Assembly: GCF_055900595.2 (NCBI RefSeq)
Contig: NZ_CM148325.1
Strand: one strand, 5' to 3'
Length of the DNA: 64,000 nt
The notes under the pieces were generated by a model that was not told the origin of the DNA, did no database searches, and saw only the letters and a list, made by a program, of their open reading frames with translations. The position numbers and the translations under genes are program-made. Within the stretch, counting starts at the first letter, position 1. Every line of letters begins with the position of its first letter. Positions 10,014-31,583 of this stretch are shown here, in pieces.

Positions 10014-10040
10014 ACAGCCCCGTTCGGGGCTGTTATTTAT
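10014..10040. terminator. Bidirectional intrinsic terminator
   Basis: CAGCCCCGTTCGGGGCTG hairpin flanked by T-rich sequence on both strands, between convergent genes. Confidence 0.55.
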
Positions 10041-10411
10041 TCCAGAATCAGCTGTTCAGGTGTGCAGCCGTACAGTCTGGCAAGGCGCTCAATATTTGCC
10101 CTGCGCGGGCGTTCTGTTCTTTCGAATTCGGACACGGTAGCCTGCCTGATACCCAGCGCATCCGCCACCTGCTTTTGCGTCATTCCGCGATAGATTCGCC
10201 ACGCCGCCTGCATGGTGCAGCCACGTTCCGAGAGGATGTTGACCACCTCGTTGGGATACAGCGTATCAGGCGATGCACTCGGTTCGTTCTGGACGTCCTC
10301 GTAGAGTTCGTCAAGGTCGCTGTCTCCTGCCAGTTTTTCAAACAACGCCACTGGCAGAATGACGGATACCCTGTTACCCGCACCGTCAGTAATAAACTGA
10401 ATCTGACTCAT
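10037..10411 (-). CDS. HigA-like antitoxin, XRE-family HTH (124 aa)
   Basis: C-terminal HTH (MTQKQVADALGIRQATVSEFERTERPRRANIERLARLYGCTPEQL); immediately downstream of a RelE/ParE-like gene. Confidence 0.65.
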   Translation of the reverse strand: MSQIQFITDGAGNRVSVILPVALFEKLAGDSDLDELYEDVQNEPSASPDTLYPNEVVNILSERGCTMQAAWRIYRGMTQKQVADALGIRQATVSEFERTERPRRANIERLARLYGCTPEQLILE

Positions 10412-10484: not shown

Positions 10485-10757
10485 TTAGTATGTTGTCGAG
10501 GTTCTCCGCTGAATACGGAGGATCCTGATAACCACTATCTGCCCTCCCTCAATCGTGAACCTGACACGGTAATGATTTACCCTGAGTCTGTACTCCCCGC
10601 CCGAGTCAGTGAGCTTTTTAATATCCAGATTCTGGAACTTCGGATAGCCATAAAGCGCGTTAACTTTCTCGCGTAAGGATTTCTGATCCCTCGCTGGCAA
10701 AACCCGTAAATCTTTGATTGCCCGAGGGGTCCACATGATTTCAGTCGTCATAAACAC
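10485..10757 (-). CDS. RelE/ParE-superfamily toxin, HigB-like position (90 aa; start uncertain)
   Basis: MWTPRAIKDLRVLPARDQKSLREKVNAL...YRLRVNHYRVRFTIEGGQIVVIRILRIQRR fits the RelE/ParE pattern; toxin-first gene order is HigBA-like. Confidence 0.65.
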   Translation of the reverse strand: MFMTTEIMWTPRAIKDLRVLPARDQKSLREKVNALYGYPKFQNLDIKKLTDSGGEYRLRVNHYRVRFTIEGGQIVVIRILRIQRRTSTTY

Positions 10758-23461: not shown

Positions 23462-24573
23462 ACACCGATTTTTATTCCGTTCTGACGGATGCCGGGCTGA
23501 AAAAACTGGCGGCAGCCGCAGCATCAGGGAATCAGATGAAAATCACCCATATGGCTGTAGGCGACGGAAACGGAAAAGCCGTAACACCCGGCAGGGCCGA
23601 CACCAGGCTTGTCAGGGAAAAATACCGTGCGCCACTGAACAGTCTGGAAGAAGACACAGAGAGACCGGGGCATGTTATCGCAGAAATGGTGATACCTGAA
23701 AAACAGGGAGGGTGGTGGATCAGAGAATTCGGATTATTCGACGAAGACGGCGGAATGATTGTTACAGGCAAATTTCCTGACACATGGAAGCCTGCACCTG
23801 GTCAGGGTGGAGCACGACTGATATCAGTGAAAGTGGTTGTGGCAGTATCACATACAGAAAACATTGTGCTGAAAGTGGATCCTTCTGTTGTCATGGCAAC
23901 CCGGGAATGGGTGAACACAAAAGCAGAGCAGTTAAAGAAAGAGCTCAGACAACCTGATGCAACCACCAAAACAAAAGGCATTGTTCAGCTTAGCAGTGAC
24001 ATCAACAGCACCTCTGAAACGCAGGCTGCCACCCCCGGAGCGGTAAAAGCCGTGAATGATCGTGTGGACGGAAAACAGGACGCGGATCCCACGCTCACAT
24101 CTCTGTCCGGGAAAAATGCACAGCAACTGAGGCAGCTTCTGGGGCTGGGCACGCTTGCCACCCTGAACAGGGGCACCGGTTCAGGGAATGTGCCGGACAT
24201 GAGTCACTTTGCGAGTAAAAAAGCAGACTACGGTTACCAGTGTTTTCCTGGCGGCATAATGATCCAGTGGCTGCGGATCCCCTCAGACCACACAGAAAGA
24301 GCTGTCAGTCAGGAAGCCCGGGTGGCACTAAGCGGCGTGCGACTGTTTTCAGTGGAGGGTAACTGGAACGGTAATAACATGATTAAGACCCTGGCAAACT
24401 ACCAGTGGCCGAGAGTTTTCGGGGCAATTTATGCGACCGTTGCAACCAGGAATCACGGATCTGCATGGCGAGTATATCCGGTGTCCGCGAACAAGGATGT
24501 GCGTGTCGTATCCATTGCCTGGGCGGGAGAAGGTACAGATGACACTTATGTGGTTGGGGTGGGAAGAGTATGA
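23458..24573 (+). CDS. H: Tail fibre protein, gpH-like (371 aa)
   Basis: N-terminus typical of P2-family tail fibres (MNTDFYSVLTDAGLKKLAAA...); host-range-variable C-terminus. Confidence 0.8.
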   Translation: MNTDFYSVLTDAGLKKLAAAAASGNQMKITHMAVGDGNGKAVTPGRADTRLVREKYRAPLNSLEEDTERPGHVIAEMVIPEKQGGWWIREFGLFDEDGGMIVTGKFPDTWKPAPGQGGARLISVKVVVAVSHTENIVLKVDPSVVMATREWVNTKAEQLKKELRQPDATTKTKGIVQLSSDINSTSETQAATPGAVKAVNDRVDGKQDADPTLTSLSGKNAQQLRQLLGLGTLATLNRGTGSGNVPDMSHFASKKADYGYQCFPGGIMIQWLRIPSDHTERAVSQEARVALSGVRLFSVEGNWNGNNMIKTLANYQWPRVFGAIYATVATRNHGSAWRVYPVSANKDVRVVSIAWAGEGTDDTYVVGVGRV

Positions 24574-25016
24574 AAATGATGTGGTCGCCGTCTGTGGGCG
24601 GTTTTTTTGGTGAAGACAGCAGCCATATACCGGAAGATGCGGTGGAGGTTGATGAATCGATGTGGAGCAGGATGATGGAGGGACAACTTGAGGGAAAAAT
24701 TATCGTTAACGGCCCTGACGACCTGCCTGTTCTGGAAGAGCGTCCGGGACCGGGGCCAGAAGAATACCGGCATCAGGCTCGCCTTGAGCTTGCTGACCTT
24801 CGCCGACAGGGGCTGGAACACATAGAGTCGATGCGCTGGCGTGACAAAGCGGTCATGAACAGGCTGGGAGAAGAGGAGAAGCAGGAGTATAACGCCTGGC
24901 TTGACTGGCTCGACGCGCTTGACAGTACGGACATATCAGGGGCACCGGATGTGGTGTGGCCGGTGATGCCCGTCACGGTGGTTCCTGAACATCCTCAGAA
25001 AAAATTGCCGGAGTGA
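24570..25016 (+). CDS. G: Tail fibre assembly chaperone, gpG-like
   Basis: 148 aa; overlaps the H stop. Confidence 0.75.
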   Translation: MKMMWSPSVGGFFGEDSSHIPEDAVEVDESMWSRMMEGQLEGKIIVNGPDDLPVLEERPGPGPEEYRHQARLELADLRRQGLEHIESMRWRDKAVMNRLGEEEKQEYNAWLDWLDALDSTDISGAPDVVWPVMPVTVVPEHPQKKLPE

Positions 25017-25057: not shown

Positions 25058-25504
25058 TTATCTGCCAGCATTGCGGATGATACCCGAAAGCATATCAGAC
25101 ACCGACGGCATCATTCGCTCCCGCAAATCCTCATCACAGCGTTCCATACTGACAGTGAACTCAATTTTTTTGGCCTTACCGTGGCGGTCAAGTTCGCTTC
25201 GCGTTGTGCGGACAGCCGTTATCACATACATGCCGTATATCTGCCCCACACCGTCAATCAGCGGCCATGGGCGGCCAGTGTAAGCCTGCGTCGTTAAAAG
25301 GCTGAGGGAAACCTCACCGCCGGTAATTTCGGGATAAAGCACACCGGACAACGTGATCTGGTCGTCACCCGCCCCGATATACTGCCAGCTGGCCGAACGA
25401 TTGATGCGTTCATTTTTAACGTGGCGCCAGGTTTTATTATGTTGCAGTTGTTGATGAGGCAGCGTGCGCAACTCAAAAACAAACATGCCGTAAATCATCA
25501 TCAT
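25058..25504 (-). CDS. U: Tail protein, P2 gpU family
   Basis: 148 aa, MMMIYGMFVFELRTLP...WQYIGAGDDQITLSGVLYPEITGG matches recalled gpU (MMM... start, LSGVLYPEITGG). Confidence 0.8.
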   Translation of the reverse strand: MMMIYGMFVFELRTLPHQQLQHNKTWRHVKNERINRSASWQYIGAGDDQITLSGVLYPEITGGEVSLSLLTTQAYTGRPWPLIDGVGQIYGMYVITAVRTTRSELDRHGKAKKIEFTVSMERCDEDLRERMMPSVSDMLSGIIRNAGR

Positions 25505-25515
25505 GCGAGGTACTC

Positions 25516-28500
25516 CTAATCTCTGTCACGGAAACTACCGACTGTCTGGCGGATACGGCGTTCCATTTCCGCACGGACGGCATCACCCACCATTTTTGCC
25601 AGTTCGCGCGGGTTTTGCGTGTGAACATCATGCAGGTGAATATGCAGTTCGCCAGTTAATCCCCATGGTGCCGGATCACTCTGACGCGGTCGGGGCGATG
25701 CGGGGGATATGGGCTGGCGCACAGCCTCAACCACCGGACGGGATGTTGCCGTTACGACGGGTGTCATTACCGGCGCAATATTGCCGGACACTACCGGTTT
25801 AATTACCGGGGAGAGCGTCGGTATAACATCGCCAGCCATAACCGGTTTGATCGCTGGCGAAATAACCGGAGCAACAGACTCAGCCATGACGGAACTGACA
25901 GGCTGAGGCGCTCTCACTATGCCAGCATCGATAACCAGCATGAGCTCGCGTACTGCCTCAAGGACAGGACGGGATATTGCCGCCATCACTGGTGTCATTA
26001 GCGGGGAGAACGTCGGCATGACATCGTGAGTCATAACCGGTTTGATCACCGGCGAAACCACCGGCGTAATATTACCGGACAGTACCGGACGGACGACCGG
26101 AGGAATAACCGGCACATTATTCACGGACACCACCGGCTTCACGACCGGCGACACGTTCGCCGTGGTGGATATCAGCGGCGAAACACTGACAGGCGGTGGC
26201 GCTGGCAGCGGTGGCAACGAAGGCACACTGACCGACGGCACCTGCGGCAGTCTGACAGGTGGCTCACTGACACTACCCGGTAACAGGGAAGCTGCGCGGT
26301 TAAAGCGTTCCTCCTTCCACTCACCACGAACGGCCAGCGCTTCCGGCAGGTTTTTAAAGATAATATCGCCGGGACCAGTGCGTTTTTTCGCCTGTTTCGC
26401 CTCATCCAGCAGGCCACCGGTGTTATCGACGATTTTATTCAGGCGACGCATGGTGCCGGTATTCTCCCCCGTCAGCGGAGCAGTTGCTGCAGGTGCAGGT
26501 ACTGGCGGCTTTTTGTCTTTGTCATTTTGCGGCGGATTAATGACATTAACATCCGCCAGGAGCATGGCGGCTTTCTCGTTCAGCAGCTCCTTCTGCTTCA
26601 GCTCTTCCGCCTTTTTCCGGGCGCGCTCAACCGCCGACGGAATCAGCCCGAGTTTTTCCAGCACCCGGGTTAATGAGTCAATCAGCAGCGTAACCGGACC
26701 GGTCACCAGATTGCTGATAAACTCCCCGACCTTCTGCCCGAACGTCCGCCCGGCTTCCGTGCACTTGTCCAGCTCATCCTTTGTTGTGCTTACCGGCGCG
26801 AACAAATCCACGAACCACTGCCACACACGCCCGATTGTCTGCCCGACATACTCAAACAATGGTCCCAGTGGTGCCACAGCCTCGCGCAGTGGCGTAAGCC
26901 CCTGCCACAGGCCGGACAAGAACCCGCCCACGACAGCCTTCAGCTGGTCCCAGTGCCGCCAGATAAGCACTGCCGCACCGACCAGTGTCGCCACCACAAG
27001 GCCCACCGGACTTAACAGAAAACCCAGCGCCCCGCCAAGTGCGCCCACCGCACCACTCACCATCCCCCACAGTGCGGGCAGACCTGACAGTCTGAGCGCC
27101 AGTATTCCGATACCGCGCCCCAGTGAAATCAGTGCGCCGCCAGGTGAAGTGAACGCAGCCAGCAGACCACCACGCAGCGCGCCAAGTCCCGCCTGCACAC
27201 CACGAAGCCGCCCCGCAACTACGCCCAGCAGTGCAGCAAACCGTCCGGCACCGGAGGTGATACCGACAAACAGCACGCGCCAGCCACCGATACCGCCCAG
27301 CGGACCACCGAGTACGCCGCGCAGCTGCGTCAGTAACGGCAGCGCACGACCGAGGCCGGATGTGCCGGTCAGCAGGGCAAACCCAAGACGCAGTTTTGCC
27401 AGCGGCCCCATCAACACACCAGTGGCAAGTGACAGCGCCCCCATGGCCGCAACCGCAGCCAGCAGTGCACCACCGGCAATCAGCAGTTGTTTTGTCAGTT
27501 CAGGGTGCGCCTGGGCCAGCGCGGTGACTTTCGCAATAACCCGGGTGAACGACTGCGTGACAGAACGCAGCGGCCCGTCAACGAGGTCAGCGACACGGAT
27601 ACGCAGCCCTTCCCATGCGCTGTTCAGTGATTTCAGGTCGCCGTCCAGGTTGTCCGCCATGATTCTGGCGTTTTCTTCCAGTTCGCCGTTCGCTGCCTGA
27701 ATCTCACGCGTCAGGCGCGGCAGGTTTTTTTCGCCTGCCTGTTCAACCAGGCTCATCAGGGAGACATACGCCTCCTGCCCGGCAATATCTGAAAAGAACG
27801 AGACTTTTGCCGCGTTACCGTATTTACGGGTGGCCTGATACAGCTCATACAGGATATCTTCCATCGGGCGCATGTTCCCGTAAGCATCCTGCGTTTCCAC
27901 GCCCAGCTGTTTCAGCGCCTTTGCTGCCGCTTTAGGCGGGTTCACAAGGCGGGACAGACTGGAGCGCAGCGCCGTACCAGCATCACTGCCACGTATCCCC
28001 ATCGACCCAAGCAACCCGGTCATGGCTGCGGTCTGTTCAAGAGACAGACCGAGTGAGGCGGCGACCGGTCCCGTATATTTCATCGTCTCACCAAGCCCGC
28101 GCAGGTCGGTATTGGTGCGGGTGAACGTTGCGGCCAGCGTGTCACCCACGCGGTTCATCTGGTCGGCAGACAACCCGAACTGCGTAAGGATATTTGAGCT
28201 GATATCGGCCGTCTGACCGAGGTCCATGCCGCTGGCCGTTGCCAGATTCAGCACGCCGGGAAGAGCCGCCTGTATCGCCTGCGGCGTGAACCCCGCCATG
28301 GCAAGGAACGCCTGACCGCTGGCAGCATCACCTGCGGTAAACTGCGTTTCGGAGCCGAGTTTAAGCGCCTGTTCGCGCAGCGCCTTAAACTGCGGACTGT
28401 TTTTGTCAATACGGGTCAGCGCCTGGACGCGCGACATCTCCTTACCAAAACTGACCGCCGGTTGCAGGAAACGCCCGGCCGCATAGCCACCTGCCGCTGC

Positions 28501-29058
28501 CGTGCCGACTGCCGTAAATCCACCCGCTTTCAGTTTTCCCGCCATCTCCTGAGCGCGGAAATATTGCTGGCGTGCCTGCGTGACGCGTGCCAGAGTCTGC
28601 CGTTCACGTTCCAGCTGTTCGTTGTATTGCTGTGTTCGCCGTATGGCCTGTTGAATGGTGTTGTCACTGCCGGAAAGCGCAATACCGTGACGCCGCAGCT
28701 CACCACCCAGTTCGCGCATTCGCTGAACTTCACGCGCACGGACCTCATTGAGACGCTCAAGTTTGAGGCTCAAATCGTTCATCAGCTTTTTCTGTTTGTC
28801 AGACAGCACGGTTCCGGCGCGCTGAATTTGCTGAAGTGCGCTTAACTGGCGTTGTGCCCGGGCAATGCCGTTTCCGGCCTTGTTTGCAGCCTCGCGGGCG
28901 CGATCAAATGAACGGGCGTGGCGTTCCAGGTTTTTGATCGCACCCTGCGTTCTCTGTATGGAGTCGCCAAGCTGGCCCATCATGCGACGGGCGTTTTCGG
29001 TGGGACGGGTCAGCCTGTCAACAGCGCTGAAGGCGACCCGTATATCAAGCGTTTTCAT
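25516..29058 (-). CDS. T: Tail tape measure protein, gpT-like (about 1180 aa from ATG 29056-29058; ORF track starts at GTG 29094)
   Basis: Very long helical protein with glycine-rich TM-like middle; an unusual Pro/Val-rich internally duplicated region near the C-terminus (DNA about 25700-26300). Confidence 0.85.
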   Translation of the reverse strand: MKTLDIRVAFSAVDRLTRPTENARRMMGQLGDSIQRTQGAIKNLERHARSFDRAREAANKAGNGIARAQRQLSALQQIQRAGTVLSDKQKKLMNDLSLKLERLNEVRAREVQRMRELGGELRRHGIALSGSDNTIQQAIRRTQQYNEQLERERQTLARVTQARQQYFRAQEMAGKLKAGGFTAVGTAAAGGYAAGRFLQPAVSFGKEMSRVQALTRIDKNSPQFKALREQALKLGSETQFTAGDAASGQAFLAMAGFTPQAIQAALPGVLNLATASGMDLGQTADISSNILTQFGLSADQMNRVGDTLAATFTRTNTDLRGLGETMKYTGPVAASLGLSLEQTAAMTGLLGSMGIRGSDAGTALRSSLSRLVNPPKAAAKALKQLGVETQDAYGNMRPMEDILYELYQATRKYGNAAKVSFFSDIAGQEAYVSLMSLVEQAGEKNLPRLTREIQAANGELEENARIMADNLDGDLKSLNSAWEGLRIRVADLVDGPLRSVTQSFTRVIAKVTALAQAHPELTKQLLIAGGALLAAVAAMGALSLATGVLMGPLAKLRLGFALLTGTSGLGRALPLLTQLRGVLGGPLGGIGGWRVLFVGITSGAGRFAALLGVVAGRLRGVQAGLGALRGGLLAAFTSPGGALISLGRGIGILALRLSGLPALWGMVSGAVGALGGALGFLLSPVGLVVATLVGAAVLIWRHWDQLKAVVGGFLSGLWQGLTPLREAVAPLGPLFEYVGQTIGRVWQWFVDLFAPVSTTKDELDKCTEAGRTFGQKVGEFISNLVTGPVTLLIDSLTRVLEKLGLIPSAVERARKKAEELKQKELLNEKAAMLLADVNVINPPQNDKDKKPPVPAPAATAPLTGENTGTMRRLNKIVDNTGGLLDEAKQAKKRTGPGDIIFKNLPEALAVRGEWKEERFNRAASLLPGSVSEPPVRLPQVPSVSVPSLPPLPAPPPVSVSPLISTTANVSPVVKPVVSVNNVPVIPPVVRPVLSGNITPVVSPVIKPVMTHDVMPTFSPLMTPVMAAISRPVLEAVRELMLVIDAGIVRAPQPVSSVMAESVAPVISPAIKPVMAGDVIPTLSPVIKPVVSGNIAPVMTPVVTATSRPVVEAVRQPISPASPRPRQSDPAPWGLTGELHIHLHDVHTQNPRELAKMVGDAVRAEMERRIRQTVGSFRDRD

Positions 29059-29571
29059 GCTCTGCGTTCCCGCTGCGAAGGGCCGCCCGCTCACGCCAGG
29101 CGACCACCTCGCCGGGATCCATCAGGAAGATTTCAGCGGGAGACCAGTTGAAAATAACGGCGATATCCGCCACAAAGTCTTCAATATGCTCAAAGGGCAC
29201 GACGGTTATCAGCCTGCCGTCGCCGCCACGCTCTTCCCGCCAGAGTCCTGACCGGCCAAAAAATTAACCGCCACCCCGCACAGCTGAATAAAATCAGCGG
29301 ACCCCATGCGCTTAAGCAGAACCTCGTCCAGTCGCGGCGAAGTGACGCGCGGGAGTAACTCAAACATCGCGTCCGTTTTCATGTTCAGCACGTCAAGCAG
29401 TGACAGCCCGCGCAGTGAACCGGCCTGCTGTACAGCAGGCGTGATTTCCACATACGTGATTTTTTTGTTACCGAGCACAAGGGGCGTTTTCAGCGTCACG
29501 CCGCGCTCACTGGTCACGTCCGCCGCATCAGCACCGTCAGTAACAGGGGCAACAACCGGATTTTCTTTCAT
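29045..29571 (-). CDS. E: Tail assembly chaperone gpE, with predicted -1 frameshift extension E+E'
   Basis: E ORF 29209..29571. Slippery T TTT TTG on the minus strand at 29257-29263 inside codons N-F-L; the -1 frame stays open to a TGA at 29045-29047, overlapping the start of T, as in P2 E/E'. Confidence 0.7.
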
Positions 29572-29621: not shown

Positions 29622-30140
29622 TTAACCACCAAGACCAATCGCCGAGCGCACGCGGTCCGGGAAGACGCTTTTGCCGTCCTTGCGTTCGATGTGGTTCAGT
29701 AAATCAATCTCCAGCACCGGACGGTCGTTAATGCTGAGTTTGTAGTAGGTACTTTTGACCGCATAGGTGTGAGACGTGACCTCACCCTGTTTGGCCTCCC
29801 CGGTATCAATTTCCGTCACGCGACCGCGAAGCTCAATCTCGTACAGGTCACTCTGTTCTTCATCGTTGTAGTACTCACCGACAAAGCGCAGCAGCGTACC
29901 GTCAATCGTTCCGCCGTACTTGAGGAACAGTTCGCGGGTCGGCCCGCCCATGGTGAAACTCGCATCCAGCGCGCCGTCATCCAGGCCAAGGTCGATATTT
30001 ACTGCACCGGCCATACCACCACCGCGATAGGCTTCCGTTTTACGGGTCAGTTTGGGGGCCGTGAAGCCGGTCACTCTGCCAATCTGGTTCACCCCGTCAG
30101 TAAACAGCGTGAACACCCTGAGATTTTTTGGTACGGCCAT
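29622..30140 (-). CDS. FII: Major tail tube protein, P2 gpFII family
   Basis: 172 aa between sheath and E. Confidence 0.8.
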   Translation of the reverse strand: MAVPKNLRVFTLFTDGVNQIGRVTGFTAPKLTRKTEAYRGGGMAGAVNIDLGLDDGALDASFTMGGPTRELFLKYGGTIDGTLLRFVGEYYNDEEQSDLYEIELRGRVTEIDTGEAKQGEVTSHTYAVKSTYYKLSINDRPVLEIDLLNHIERKDGKSVFPDRVRSAIGLGG

Positions 30141-31423
30141 TAAGCACCTCCAAGCGTCGCAAATGCAGGACCAAAGAATTCATCAGTAAACGTCTGGTAA
30201 AGTTCCATATCCTCAAGCGGCGGAACGGGCGTGTACTTGTAGCGGATACGCACGCGTCCCTGACGAAGTTCCGTGGTGCTGTTATCCACCACGTCATACC
30301 AGCACTCCGCACCAACGAGACGTCCTGACGTAACCAGCGCATCCAGTTTTGCGCGAATTGCGCTTAACACGTCTTTCACATTAGCAGGGGTCAGCGGGGC
30401 ATCAATCGTTTCAAACTGCGCTTCCGCAACAGAATCAGCCAGCACCTGAGCGGTTCGCGTGTACACCTCAAAGATATACGCCTTCGTTTCCGGCGTACGG
30501 TTGCCCCAGAAGCGGAAACCGTTACGGCGAATGATGGTGGTGATTTCCTTGTTGTTGAGATTGTTGGCATCGCTGTCTTCGGACTGAAGGGACCAGAACA
30601 CCGGGCTGGAAATACCCAGCACATTTCTTACCGGCACGTTGGACAGCGATTTATGCCAGCCCTGTTCGTGGTCAATACGTGCACGTAAACCGCAGGCGTA
30701 CGCCGCAGCCGGGAAGACCTCATTAGCGCCGGATTTCGGGTTATGGGCGATGAAGTCAGGCCAGAGCAGCATAAGTTCGCGCTCGTTAAATCTGGCGCGG
30801 TAGCTGATTGCATCAGCGGGCTTCTTGCAGTTGTGACAGCCCGCGTAGACAAATGCGCGAAGTTTTTCTGCAATTACACACAGGGATTTTGTGACAGCTT
30901 CAGTATCCAGTCCGGGCGCTGCGATGATGCGCGGACGGTAACCGATGGCATCATCCTGTTCAGCTATCAGAAGTGCATACATACCGGTATAATTACCGTC
31001 GTCATCCGTGCCACCAATGACATACTGGTCCTGCGTTTTGTGTGGGTATACAGGATGTGCATCTTCAGACTCATCAATACCAAAAAATGCCCTGTCTTCA
31101 GGATCCAGATGACCGAATGATGTAACTCCTGTATCCGGGGCGCCCTGAGAACTGGCATCAGGAACGCGCACCACAATCACCTTCGTGCTCACCTGGTCGG
31201 CGACAGCCTTAAGTGAACGGTACAGCGTGCCCTTTGTGCCGGTCTTACCCAGCACATCACTGACGCGGGTCAGCAGTATGGGTTTGTTCAGCGGGAACAG
31301 AGTTTCATCCGCGTCATCTGCCGTAGCCACAATACCAATAACACTGGAATCCACATCATTAATGGCGGTGGTAAGGCCGGTACTTTCCCTTACGCGCGCA
31401 CCATGAAAGCGTGTTTCACTCAT
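30140..31423 (-). CDS. FI: Tail sheath protein, P2 gpFI family
   Basis: From ATG 31421-31423 (MSETRFHGARV...); multiple segments match recalled P2 FI (FPLNKP, GTKGTL, QEQGWHKTLSNV, GFRFWGNRT, YTRTAQV, YTPVPPLE). Confidence 0.85.
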   Translation of the reverse strand: MSETRFHGARVRESTGLTTAINDVDSSVIGIVATADDADETLFPLNKPILLTRVSDVLGKTGTKGTLYRSLKAVADQVSTKVIVVRVPDASSQGAPDTGVTSFGHLDPEDRAFFGIDESEDAHPVYPHKTQDQYVIGGTDDDGNYTGMYALLIAEQDDAIGYRPRIIAAPGLDTEAVTKSLCVIAEKLRAFVYAGCHNCKKPADAISYRARFNERELMLLWPDFIAHNPKSGANEVFPAAAYACGLRARIDHEQGWHKSLSNVPVRNVLGISSPVFWSLQSEDSDANNLNNKEITTIIRRNGFRFWGNRTPETKAYIFEVYTRTAQVLADSVAEAQFETIDAPLTPANVKDVLSAIRAKLDALVTSGRLVGAECWYDVVDNSTTELRQGRVRIRYKYTPVPPLEDMELYQTFTDEFFGPAFATLGGA

Positions 31424-31583
31424 ATGTTTCACCCTTGTCTGGCTGGTTGATTTTGCGTAATCATTACCCACGATGCCGCCGGTATCATCTCCTGCCCGTT
31501 CTCACCGTTCGCTTACAACAAACAGCCGTTCACCACGGTCGCACGCCGTGAAAACATGACGGGACACACCACGAGGGCAGACC

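Follow-up and report, generated by a model that had tools for sequence, protein, structure and literature searches.

In phage lambda, the length of the tape measure protein (TMP) scales with that of the tail, and other long-tailed phages have the C-terminal end of this protein at the tip of the tail. Among the closest described systems, P2 gpT and the pro147 TMP have 815 residues each, and the TMP of P88 and other Xuanwuvirus has 935; published tail lengths are 130–131 nm for pro147 and 137–140 nm for P88. In TP901-1, tail length is proportional to TMP length, and the TMP contains repeats that are proposed to facilitate duplication and deletion, and thereby the adaptation of tail length (Mahony et al., 2016, PMC5099701).

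I analyzed a TMP gene located in a 64,000-nucleotide stretch of contig NZ_CM148325.1 (RefSeq assembly GCF_055900595.2), hereafter referred to as the window. Judged from its sequence, it is the tail tape measure gene of a P88-like (Peduoviridae) Escherichia coli prophage. The open reading frame extends from 25516 to 29094 on the minus strand, and the ATG at 29058 gives a protein of 1180 residues whose N-terminus, MKTLDIRVAF, resembles the starts of its homologues. The profile phrog_28 (‘tail length tape measure protein’) matches it with E = 9e-185, and PF10145 is fully covered (profile positions 1–201; E = 3e-58, 197.3 bits against a gathering cut-off of 33.2). Pfam and PHROG thus confirm the identity proposed in the initial annotation, which had also described the protein as oversized relative to P2 gpT, as indeed it is. 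The core aligns with the tape measure chain of PDB 9g8s (E = 5e-44). In the translation, a Gly/Ala/Leu-rich, membrane-like hydrophobic stretch is apparent at residues ∼525–700, and aligns with the hydrophobic part of Gp14 in PDB 9m8o. Matches in the PDB sequence search were confined to the N-terminal/core and hydrophobic parts, with none for the C-terminal modules; a GGA1 match in the repeat array described below (E = 0.6) was set aside as compositional.

The genes lie on the minus strand in the order sheath, tube, gpE-like, GpE, TMP, gpU, and the ORFs of this tail cluster are intact in the window. The gpE-type genes consist of a 120-residue ORF (29209–29571) and a 51-residue GpE-family ORF that overlaps the beginning of the TMP gene; PGAP applies the label ‘GpE family phage tail protein’ in GF60, where the locus is identical. 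Antisense ORFs cross the TMP region, for example 26042–27700 and 25503–25802 on the plus strand, and are probably a side effect of the coding strand being rich in G+C. All features are listed in the table.

Table. Features of the tape measure locus, in window coordinates.
Feature	Position	Strand	Residues / length	Basis or remark
Tail sheath gene	30140–31471	−		Pfam Phage_sheath_1 / sheath_1C
Tail tube gene	29622–30140	−		Pfam Phage_tube
gpE-type tail chaperone genes	29045–29571	−		phrog_103 ‘tail protein’; PGAP label in GF60
Tail tape measure protein (TMP) gene	25516–29058	−	1180 aa	ORF and translation; stop codon 25516–25518
PhageMin_Tail (TP901-type) core domain	27778–28377	−	aa 228–427	Pfam PF10145
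Gly/Ala/Leu-rich hydrophobic segment	27082–27342	−	aa 573–659	MAFFT comparison
Conserved motif GPGDIIFKNLPEALAVRGEW	26317–26376	−	aa 895–914	Columns invariant or near-invariant; upstream spacer anchor
Pro-rich lead-in (SLLPGSVSEPPVRLPQVPSVSVPSLPPLPAPP)	26203–26304	−	aa 919–952	Only in this clade
Repeat unit I	25912–26202	−	aa 953–1049; 291 nt	
Repeat unit II	25714–25911	−	aa 1050–1115	Shorter than unit I
Segment exactly duplicated in the 1238-aa allele	25853–26047	−	195 nt	Strain Br_112_kylling
Segment absent from 1103-aa one-copy alleles	25752–25982	−	231 nt	Nucleotide alignment of window with L005, L007, L004
Conserved C-terminal module	25519–25653	−	aa 1136–1180	GELHIHLH and amphipathic helix; downstream spacer anchor
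gpU-type tail protein gene	25058–25504	−		Directly downstream of TMP gene; Pfam Phage_P2_GpU, E = 7e-41

The operon context of P2 gpT and of the pro147 TMP is that of the window. Homology to gpT runs from the N-terminus to the sequence VLEKLG (34% identity, window residues 4–806 against gpT residues 5–718), after which only 97 residues remain in P2, but 374 in the window TMP; P2 lacks the Pro/Val array as well as the GPGDI motif and the GEIHVHLH module. The nearest named relative is P88: its TMP is collinear with that of the window over the full length (934 aligned residues, 67% identity), with a common N-terminal region, PhageMin_Tail core and hydrophobic region, and it also possesses the GPGDIVFKNLP..AVRGEW motif, one PVVAASSRPVAEAIR end motif and a GEIHVHLH terminal module, the GPGDI and GEIHVHLH motifs being invariant. 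The neighbouring gpE, gpU, tube and sheath genes match, and gpD lies beyond the sheath gene in both. However, P88-like genomes show no megablast-level DNA similarity to the window gene, and none of 50,697 phage records was matched in a megablast search with this gene.

Using the GPGDI-type motif and the C-terminal module as landmarks, the length of the intervening spacer was counted across relatives. It is fixed at 86 residues in P88, with a single end motif and without any of the 16-residue units described below, whereas the window spacer has 241; a spacer of 164, 241 or 306 residues is found within the clade of the window. The spacer is 70–86 residues long in ∼108 relatives and 86 in ∼104 P88-like cluster representatives, and P88 length was likewise found for 78 of the best 80 relatives in IMG/VR. 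The window TMP therefore falls outside the P88-type length of ∼935 residues with an 86-residue spacer. Alignment with the P88, phiT5282H and Kp4845 TMPs shows collinearity apart from window residues 573–659 and 919–1095, both missing from P88. The initial annotation had ascribed the excess to a tandem Pro/Val segment near the C-terminus, which holds for 155 residues relative to P88, but a further 87 are found in the hydrophobic middle. This second segment is largely kept in phiT5282H and Kp4845 according to MAFFT, and is a second indel hot spot, with a 7-residue indel and a 45-residue tandem duplication in the relatives P0010 and P0012.

The self-comparison proposed in the initial annotation for 25500–29100 was performed with blastn on the whole TMP gene, and returned off-diagonal matches (E from 2e-18 to 2e-5) that all lie inside 25709–26151; the internal repeat is real, and significant internal DNA repeats are limited to this interval. 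The individual pairs are 25793–25908 with 25988–26103 (72% identity, spacing 195), 25709–25773 with 25940–26004 (78%, spacing 231) and 25894–25912 with 26185–26203 (89%, spacing 291). Self-alignment of the protein scores 162, against 43 ± 8 for shuffles, and DNA alignment of unit I with unit II scores 46, against 3 ± 3 for codon shuffles. Tandem Repeats Finder did not report the array, since divergence and indels set its copies too far apart.

The array is nested, with PVxx tetrads composing five 16-residue units, themselves distributed over two larger units of 97 and ∼66 residues. The consensus of the 16-residue unit is SPVIKPVxSGNIxPVx, with proline at positions 2, 6 and 14, and both larger units terminate in TPVxxAxSRPVxEAVR. 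Unit I comprises an APPPVS lead, three 16-residue units (26008–26151), SPLM, the end motif TPVMAAISRPVLEAVRE (25945–25995) and an LMLVIDAGIVR tail, and unit II an APQPVS lead, two 16-residue units (25765–25860) and the end motif TPVVTATSRPVVEAVRQ (25714–25764). The repeated peptide block PVISPAIKPVMAGDVIPTLSPVIKPVVSGNIAPVMTPVV, reported in the initial annotation, is present at residues ∼1064–1102. The two tandem units of ∼300 bp described there fit the evidence only in part: unit I, at 291 nt, agrees, but unit II (25911–25714) is shorter, and the copies are diverged and gapped. Valine and proline account for 21% and 20% of residues 941–1130, and the array includes a single Phe and no Trp.

Neither Pfam nor PHROG offered a profile match to the array. 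The C-terminal module has invariant H/L columns and is covered by phrog_5431 and phrog_17114. A phmmer search with the C-terminal 286 residues against 1.84 billion representatives returned 24 matches; the ones that reach into the array are weak, involve low-complexity PV/PT proteins unrelated to it, and were rejected as homologues. A homologue search with just the Pro/Val region gave two fragments; as this region is present in full-length members, the low number was ascribed to filtering by the tool and not taken as a sign of rarity.

It had been suggested that the repeat arose by a recent duplication that would change virion geometry. The two large units of the window are instead old copies, with 75% nucleotide identity over 185 aligned nt and 81% over the best 111 nt, a dS of ∼0.35 and a dN/dS of ∼0.5. 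A recent origin is not supported because of this divergence, and because eight complete E. coli genomes share the two-copy form; over the same repeat region, TMP alleles of different strains are 97–100% identical. The spectrum of substitutions between the copies has no adenine bias, which does not point to a diversity-generating retroelement target.

Recent events were found in sister prophages, where the alleles carry 1, 2 or 3 repeat copies, corresponding to TMPs of 1103, 1180 and 1238 residues, each encoded by an intact ORF. Examples of carriers are SCU-115 for the 1103-residue form, CS5L and CM2 for the 1180-residue form, and Br_112_kylling for the 1238-residue form. The repeat is thus not conserved unchanged. 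The one-copy allele lacks 231 nt, with a breakpoint in a shared hexamer, CGGCAA, that makes its position ambiguous by 6 nt, and the L005 version is a perfect chimera, matching copy 1 to the left of the junction and copy 2 to its right. By parsimony, this change can be argued to be a deletion rather than an insertion. In the three-copy allele (L004), the duplicated 195 nt are flanked by the 16-mer GATCAAACCGGTTATG, found in the window at 26032–26047 and 25837–25852, and the two copies are identical at 195 of 195 positions, giving an exact repeat of 211 nt. The near-identical copies expected of a recent tandem duplication are found only here, and not between the units of the window. A further chimeric allele, in which AGDVIPTL is joined to SPLMTPVMAAISRPV, also keeps the reading frame.

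The probability that the repeat is an artefact of sequencing or assembly is negligible. Draft contigs do often begin or stop within residues 985–1045, a stretch difficult for short reads, and the three-copy form is known from one complete genome only. The two-copy form is, however, identical or nearly so in eight independent complete genomes that differ in country and source, the 1180-residue protein occurs on dozens of contigs (its UniRef100 entry has 57 members), and collapse or expansion during assembly could not have produced copies as diverged as these. A cluster of 905 partial proteins was considered as a sign that exact-repeat alleles are common, but was dropped, its members being fragments of many lengths. 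PGAP annotates the intact TMP gene as pseudogene fragments; given these labels and the short-read breaks in the gene, assessments of how complete the prophages of this lineage are will likely be wrong.

The array could also be neutral filler, its polymorphism reflecting relaxed selection in rarely induced or defective prophages, with no consequence for the virion. Strain 135 has a 10-nt frameshifting deletion in the Pro-rich lead-in, the GF60 prophage copy carries an IS21 element in its sheath gene, additional in-frame indels occur elsewhere in the TMP gene among relatives, and the expansion was found in none of the sequenced phage isolates. With the frameshift and the IS21 element, some copies of the prophage are visibly decaying, and the polymorphism in length could be neutral in part. 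I nonetheless consider neutral filler unlikely, as the 1-, 2- and 3-copy forms and the chimeric allele all keep the frame, the tail gene cluster of the window consists of intact ORFs, and the dN/dS between copies, together with the prolines kept in every 16-residue unit, suggests some constraint.

A structural model of the TMP was generated with AF2, as a monomer and from an alignment of 11 sequences. Its mean pLDDT of 51 is too low for fold searching; the spacer is modeled as coil with pLDDT below 50, and only the C-terminal module reaches 77–86. From such low confidence, disorder cannot be concluded for the trimer enclosed in the tube. The published virions provide a second line of comparison, as P88 has 120 TMP residues more than pro147, but a tail longer by only 6–9 nm. 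This suggests that the C-terminal extension contributes less than 0.08 nm for each residue, at most about half the value for a helical ruler, and it may contribute little or nothing to the ruler.

These values bear on the proposal that a recent duplication lengthened ruler and tail in proportion, at ∼0.15 nm per residue. It is consistent with the presence of two tandem units, with the truly recent exact copy in L004, and with the scaling of TMP and tail established for lambda and described for TP901-1 (PMC5099701). I regard it as improbable, since the window copies differ at 19–25% of their DNA positions and are common to eight genomes that are 97–100% identical elsewhere in the gene, the segment is predicted to be non-helical, and P88 and pro147 yield a lower value per residue.

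The explanation I consider probable, based on sequence comparison, is that of an old, repeat-built Pro/Val spacer that changes length in frame, acts as a length-tolerant linker, and probably makes the tail somewhat longer. Some 155 of the extra residues form a low-complexity Pro/Val-rich spacer between the GPGDIxFKNLP..AVRGEW motif and the GE[IL]H[IV]HLH helix module. Where different units share short identical stretches, recombination or slippage changes its length while keeping the frame, and this has given rise to the one-copy deletion derivative and the exact duplication in otherwise near-identical prophages. The spacer is predicted to be non-helical, either extended or disordered, and by analogy would lie at the baseplate-proximal end of the ruler; from these two properties, it may be expected to behave as a length-tolerant linker. 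It would probably lengthen the tail by ∼1–3 tube/sheath discs per 77-residue unit, less than a helical segment of equal length.

Two more specific roles can be considered for the array. It may act after ejection, as a stiff, extended, polyproline-like tether comparable to the Pro-rich region of TonB that spans the periplasm, with the C-terminal module crossing the periplasm before the hydrophobic, channel-forming part. The array does have the conserved C-terminal module on one side and the membrane-like hydrophobic region on the other, its regularly spaced prolines (20%) and predicted non-helical nature would suit a tether, and other phages are known to eject their TMP into the envelope (PMC5099701). 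However, relatives with a 70–86-residue spacer infect the same species, and the resemblance to PV/PT linkers is compositional only, and this role seems unlikely. Alternatively, the array could be a natural tuning cassette, in which recombination between the nested repeats switches the TMP between its three lengths, so that populations would contain particles with stepwise tail lengths or envelope reach, the polymorphism being maintained by selection through the thickness of the host surface (capsule, O-antigen); this too seems unlikely. The three near-identical alleles, which differ by 77 or 65 non-helical residues, represent a natural length series. In a contractile-tailed phage, this series would test what the ruler measures: the number of residues, its physical length, or the helical part alone.

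Overall, the variation described here is real but modest, and the evolution of the array is of an ordinary kind, internal duplication and loss being already known in tape measure genes. The nearest precedent is the TP901-1 TMP, which likewise has short tandem repeats and tolerates their in-frame loss or gain (PMC5099701). The TP901-1 repeats are, however, 11 or 18 residues long, marked by Trp or Phe and located in a helical region, and their scaling with tail length was seen by electron microscopy, whereas the window array has a 16-residue period with 4-residue PVxx sub-units, and is Pro-rich and predicted non-helical. Aromatic 11- or 18-residue repeats of the TP901-1/p2 type are therefore not what the array is built from. 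In composition and in the short periodic spacing of its prolines, it is reminiscent of the periplasmic spacer of TonB and of the PT/PV linkers of surface proteins; these are different proteins in a different context, with no homology to the array, and the likeness is that of a functional analogy.

The prophage lies in an E. coli chromosome, flanked by host genes for a CopA-type copper ATPase (copA by PGAP in matching genomes), a 5'-nucleotidase, a large MscS-family mechanosensitive channel and an AcrB-family transporter. Its tail tape measure protein (TMP) is encoded within a P2-family tail operon, with the gpD and ogr genes beyond the sheath gene on the far side. The product matches PHROG 28 ('tail length tape measure protein') and carries a PhageMin_Tail core at residues 228–427 (Pfam, 197 bits); by every testable criterion, this ORF is a tape measure protein. 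Across the TMP gene region E. coli strain GF60 is 100% identical to the window, and several poultry and human isolates are 97–99% identical. At the identical locus of GF60, PGAP annotates an HTH protein gene and a RelE/ParE-family toxin gene inside the prophage, with early genes on one side and the portal gene on the other.

Features of the prophage, in window coordinates
Feature	Position	Strand	Remarks
HTH protein gene	10037-10411	-	
RelE/ParE-family toxin gene	10485-10757	-	
Tail fibre assembly gene	24570-25016	+	directly adjoins gpU
gpU gene	25058-25504	-	after TMP gene
TMP gene	25516-29058	-	1180 residues, N-terminus MKTLDIRVAF
Repeat unit II	25911-25714		TMP aa 1050-1115
Repeat unit I	26202-25912		TMP aa 953-1049; 291 nt
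gpE-type chaperone genes	29045-29571	-	between tube and TMP genes
Tail tube gene	29622-30140	-	P2-family tail operon
Tail sheath gene	30140-31471	-	P2-family tail operon; intact, 443 aa

The initial annotation had described the TMP as oversized, and it is so against both P2 gpT (815 aa), whose homology stops at the VLEKLG motif (residue 806 of the window protein), and the TMP of Xuanwuvirus P88 and its relatives (935 aa, 67% identity). The closest named phages are Peduoviridae members, including Novemvirus phiT5282H (988 aa) and Reipivirus Kp4845-1 (991 aa), and a megablast of the gene against 50,697 phage records returned no DNA match. Relative to P88, two regions are specific to the window: residues 573–659, an 87-residue Gly/Ala/Leu hydrophobic part largely common to phiT5282H and Kp4845, and residues 919–1095, where 155 residues are split over three blocks. 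The latter is bracketed by two family-invariant motifs, GPGDIxFKNLP..AVRGEW (residues 895–914) and GE[IL]H[IV]HLH followed by a helix (residues 1136–1180). I measured the distance between these motifs, hereafter the spacer, in all full-length relatives fetched: it is 86 residues in 104 P88-like cluster representatives and 70–78 in four more distant relatives, versus 164, 241 (window) or 306 in the window's clade. The C-terminal module is encoded on 451 IMG/VR contigs, the best 80 of which comprise 78 of P88 length plus one each with the window's allele and the 164-residue spacer; the expanded part is covered by none of the 29 phage records having the module. The repeat array within the spacer is an expansion peculiar to this clade, in a segment whose length is normally constant.

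This array is rich in Pro and Val as first described (20% and 21%, respectively), and blastn self-comparison of the gene places all significant off-diagonal similarity within 25709–26151 (E 2e-18 to 2e-5); the protein self-alignment scores 162, against 43 ± 8 in shuffles. Its construction is nested, with PVxx tetrads forming 16-residue units (consensus SPVIKPVxSGNIxPVx), three at residues 970–1017 and two at residues 1067–1098, that are housed in two larger units, each starting AP[PQ]PVS and finishing TPVxxAxSRPVxEAVR. P88 possesses this end motif once, and none of the 16-residue units. The proposal of two tandem copies of about 300 bp is correct in that the repeat is real and unit I has nearly that size, but unit II is shorter and the copies have diverged. 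Tandem Repeats Finder did not detect the array, because of this divergence and of indels between the copies.

The duplication had also been read as recent, which its divergence contradicts. Identity between units I and II is 75% across 185 aligned nucleotides and 81% over the best 111, with dS ∼0.35, dN ∼0.17 and no base-specific bias in the differences over that stretch, versus 97–100% identity between different strains' alleles across the repeat region. Judged on these identities, the window duplication is older than the spread of this prophage.

Complete E. coli genomes yielded four allele classes. The window's two-copy arrangement is found in eight records (1180 aa, or 1173 aa through a 7-aa indel in the hydrophobic region), and for this form an assembly artefact is excluded as the source of the repeat. 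A one-copy allele, 231 nt shorter (1103 aa), is present in 17 records, eight of which are equal in size (5,067,659 bp) and perhaps represent a single strain. In nucleotide alignment it follows copy 1 (unit I) exactly up to ...CCAGTGATGG and copy 2 (unit II) exactly from CGGCAACATCC..., with the junction inside the hexamer CGGCAA common to both; from this perfect match on either side, it would most simply have arisen by deletion from a two-copy allele. The three-copy allele (1238 aa, 195 nt longer; one record, Br_112_kylling) carries an exact duplication (195/195 identical, exact repeat 211 nt) flanked by the 16-mer GATCAAACCGGTTATG, found once per window copy. The fourth class, also a single record (strain 135), is the one-copy form disrupted by a 10-nt frameshifting deletion, CCACCGCTGC, located in the Pro-rich lead-in. 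At least one more chimeric arrangement, AGDVIPTL|SPLMTPVMAAISRPV, is seen in draft assemblies, where it opens one set of contigs and indicates an additional recombinant allele. Array length shifts in frame, by recombination or slippage at short identities among its own units. Many draft contigs start or stop at varied positions within residues 985–1045 (proteins P0121, P0151, P0159, P0175-P0188), and the repeat is therefore a frequent breakpoint in short-read assemblies.

Length also varies elsewhere in the protein. The hydrophobic region (window ∼27082–27500, residues 520–660; P0010, P0012, P0013) is a second such spot, P0012 bearing a ∼45-aa tandem duplication, GGPLGGIGGWRVLF...GALRG. A 30-residue in-frame deletion flanked by short direct repeats, KALREQA|IQAALPGV, lies within the PhageMin_Tail core (residues ∼233–262; P0008, on 14 contigs, P0009, P0011, P0014-P0016), and P0005 and P0006 have smaller deletions of 2 and 5 aa.

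One possibility is that the length polymorphism is neutral and arises in prophages that are decaying. The strain 135 frameshift supports this, as does the IS21-family element (istA/istB, ISSso4-like) inside the sheath gene of a GF60 copy (L008 24625-28554); however, the reading frame is preserved in all length classes, the Pro residues keep their positions, and dN/dS is ∼0.5. That IS21-bearing copy adjoins hicAB/ihfA while the window prophage adjoins copA, so prophages of this type are found at two or more chromosomal sites, with more than one copy in GF60.

Neither Pfam nor PHROG has a profile that covers residues 941–1084. When the C-terminal 286 residues were compared by phmmer with 1.84 billion representatives, 24 hits were returned; the ones that reach into the array are unrelated PV/PT low-complexity proteins, and were rejected as homologues. 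A word-indexed search with just the Pro/Val region yielded two short fragments, although this exact region is present in many full-length proteins of that database; a low-complexity or bias filter is the probable cause. AlphaFold2, run on residues 799–1180 as a monomer with an 11-sequence alignment, predicted helices at residues 809–840, 867–892, 1030–1044 and 1150–1173, with coil at pLDDT <50 across the spacer and only the terminal helix at pLDDT 77–86. This weak, monomeric model is an indication that the spacer may be non-helical.

Tape measure C-termini are located at the tail tip, and TMP length sets tail length; on this basis the spacer would sit at the ruler's baseplate-proximal end and serve there as a non-helical linker. 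A helical ruler extends ∼0.15 nm per residue, which corresponds to 11–12 nm per 77-residue unit. In TP901-1 deletion mutants, tail length is proportional to TMP length (PMC5099701). The tails of P88 and pro147 (TMP 935 and 815 aa), measured in one paper at 137–140 and 130–131 nm (PMC5285337), differ by 6–9 nm, against 120 additional residues that fall almost entirely within the C-terminal extension, or <0.08 nm per residue. By this comparison, the spacer is expected to add less than proportionally to tail length, and it is somewhat more likely than not that it lengthens the tail measurably at all. Alternatively, it may act after ejection, as a putative periplasm-spanning tether.

PGAP calls the TMP gene pseudogene fragments ('incomplete; missing C-terminus') in GF60, SCU-115, LH50-c and Br_112_kylling. 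The flagged ORFs (1103–1238 aa) are intact, the only genuine frameshift being that of strain 135. The series is useful mainly as a natural set of cases on which ruler models can be tested, and as a warning for annotation.

That tape measure genes gain and lose internal duplications is already well known, and the TP901-1 authors proposed that repeats facilitate both duplication and deletion (PMC5099701). A nested Pro/Val array with a one-, two- and three-copy series in a contractile-tailed P2-family prophage appears undescribed in the literature searched, and the aromatic 11/18-residue repeats of lactococcal phage TMPs are absent from the window protein. In P88 a DNA invertase gene separates gpU from the tail fibre genes (L001 5815-6932), whereas in the window there is no invertase. 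The window TMP is related to the P88-type TMPs, but departs from the otherwise invariant length and spacer of that group.
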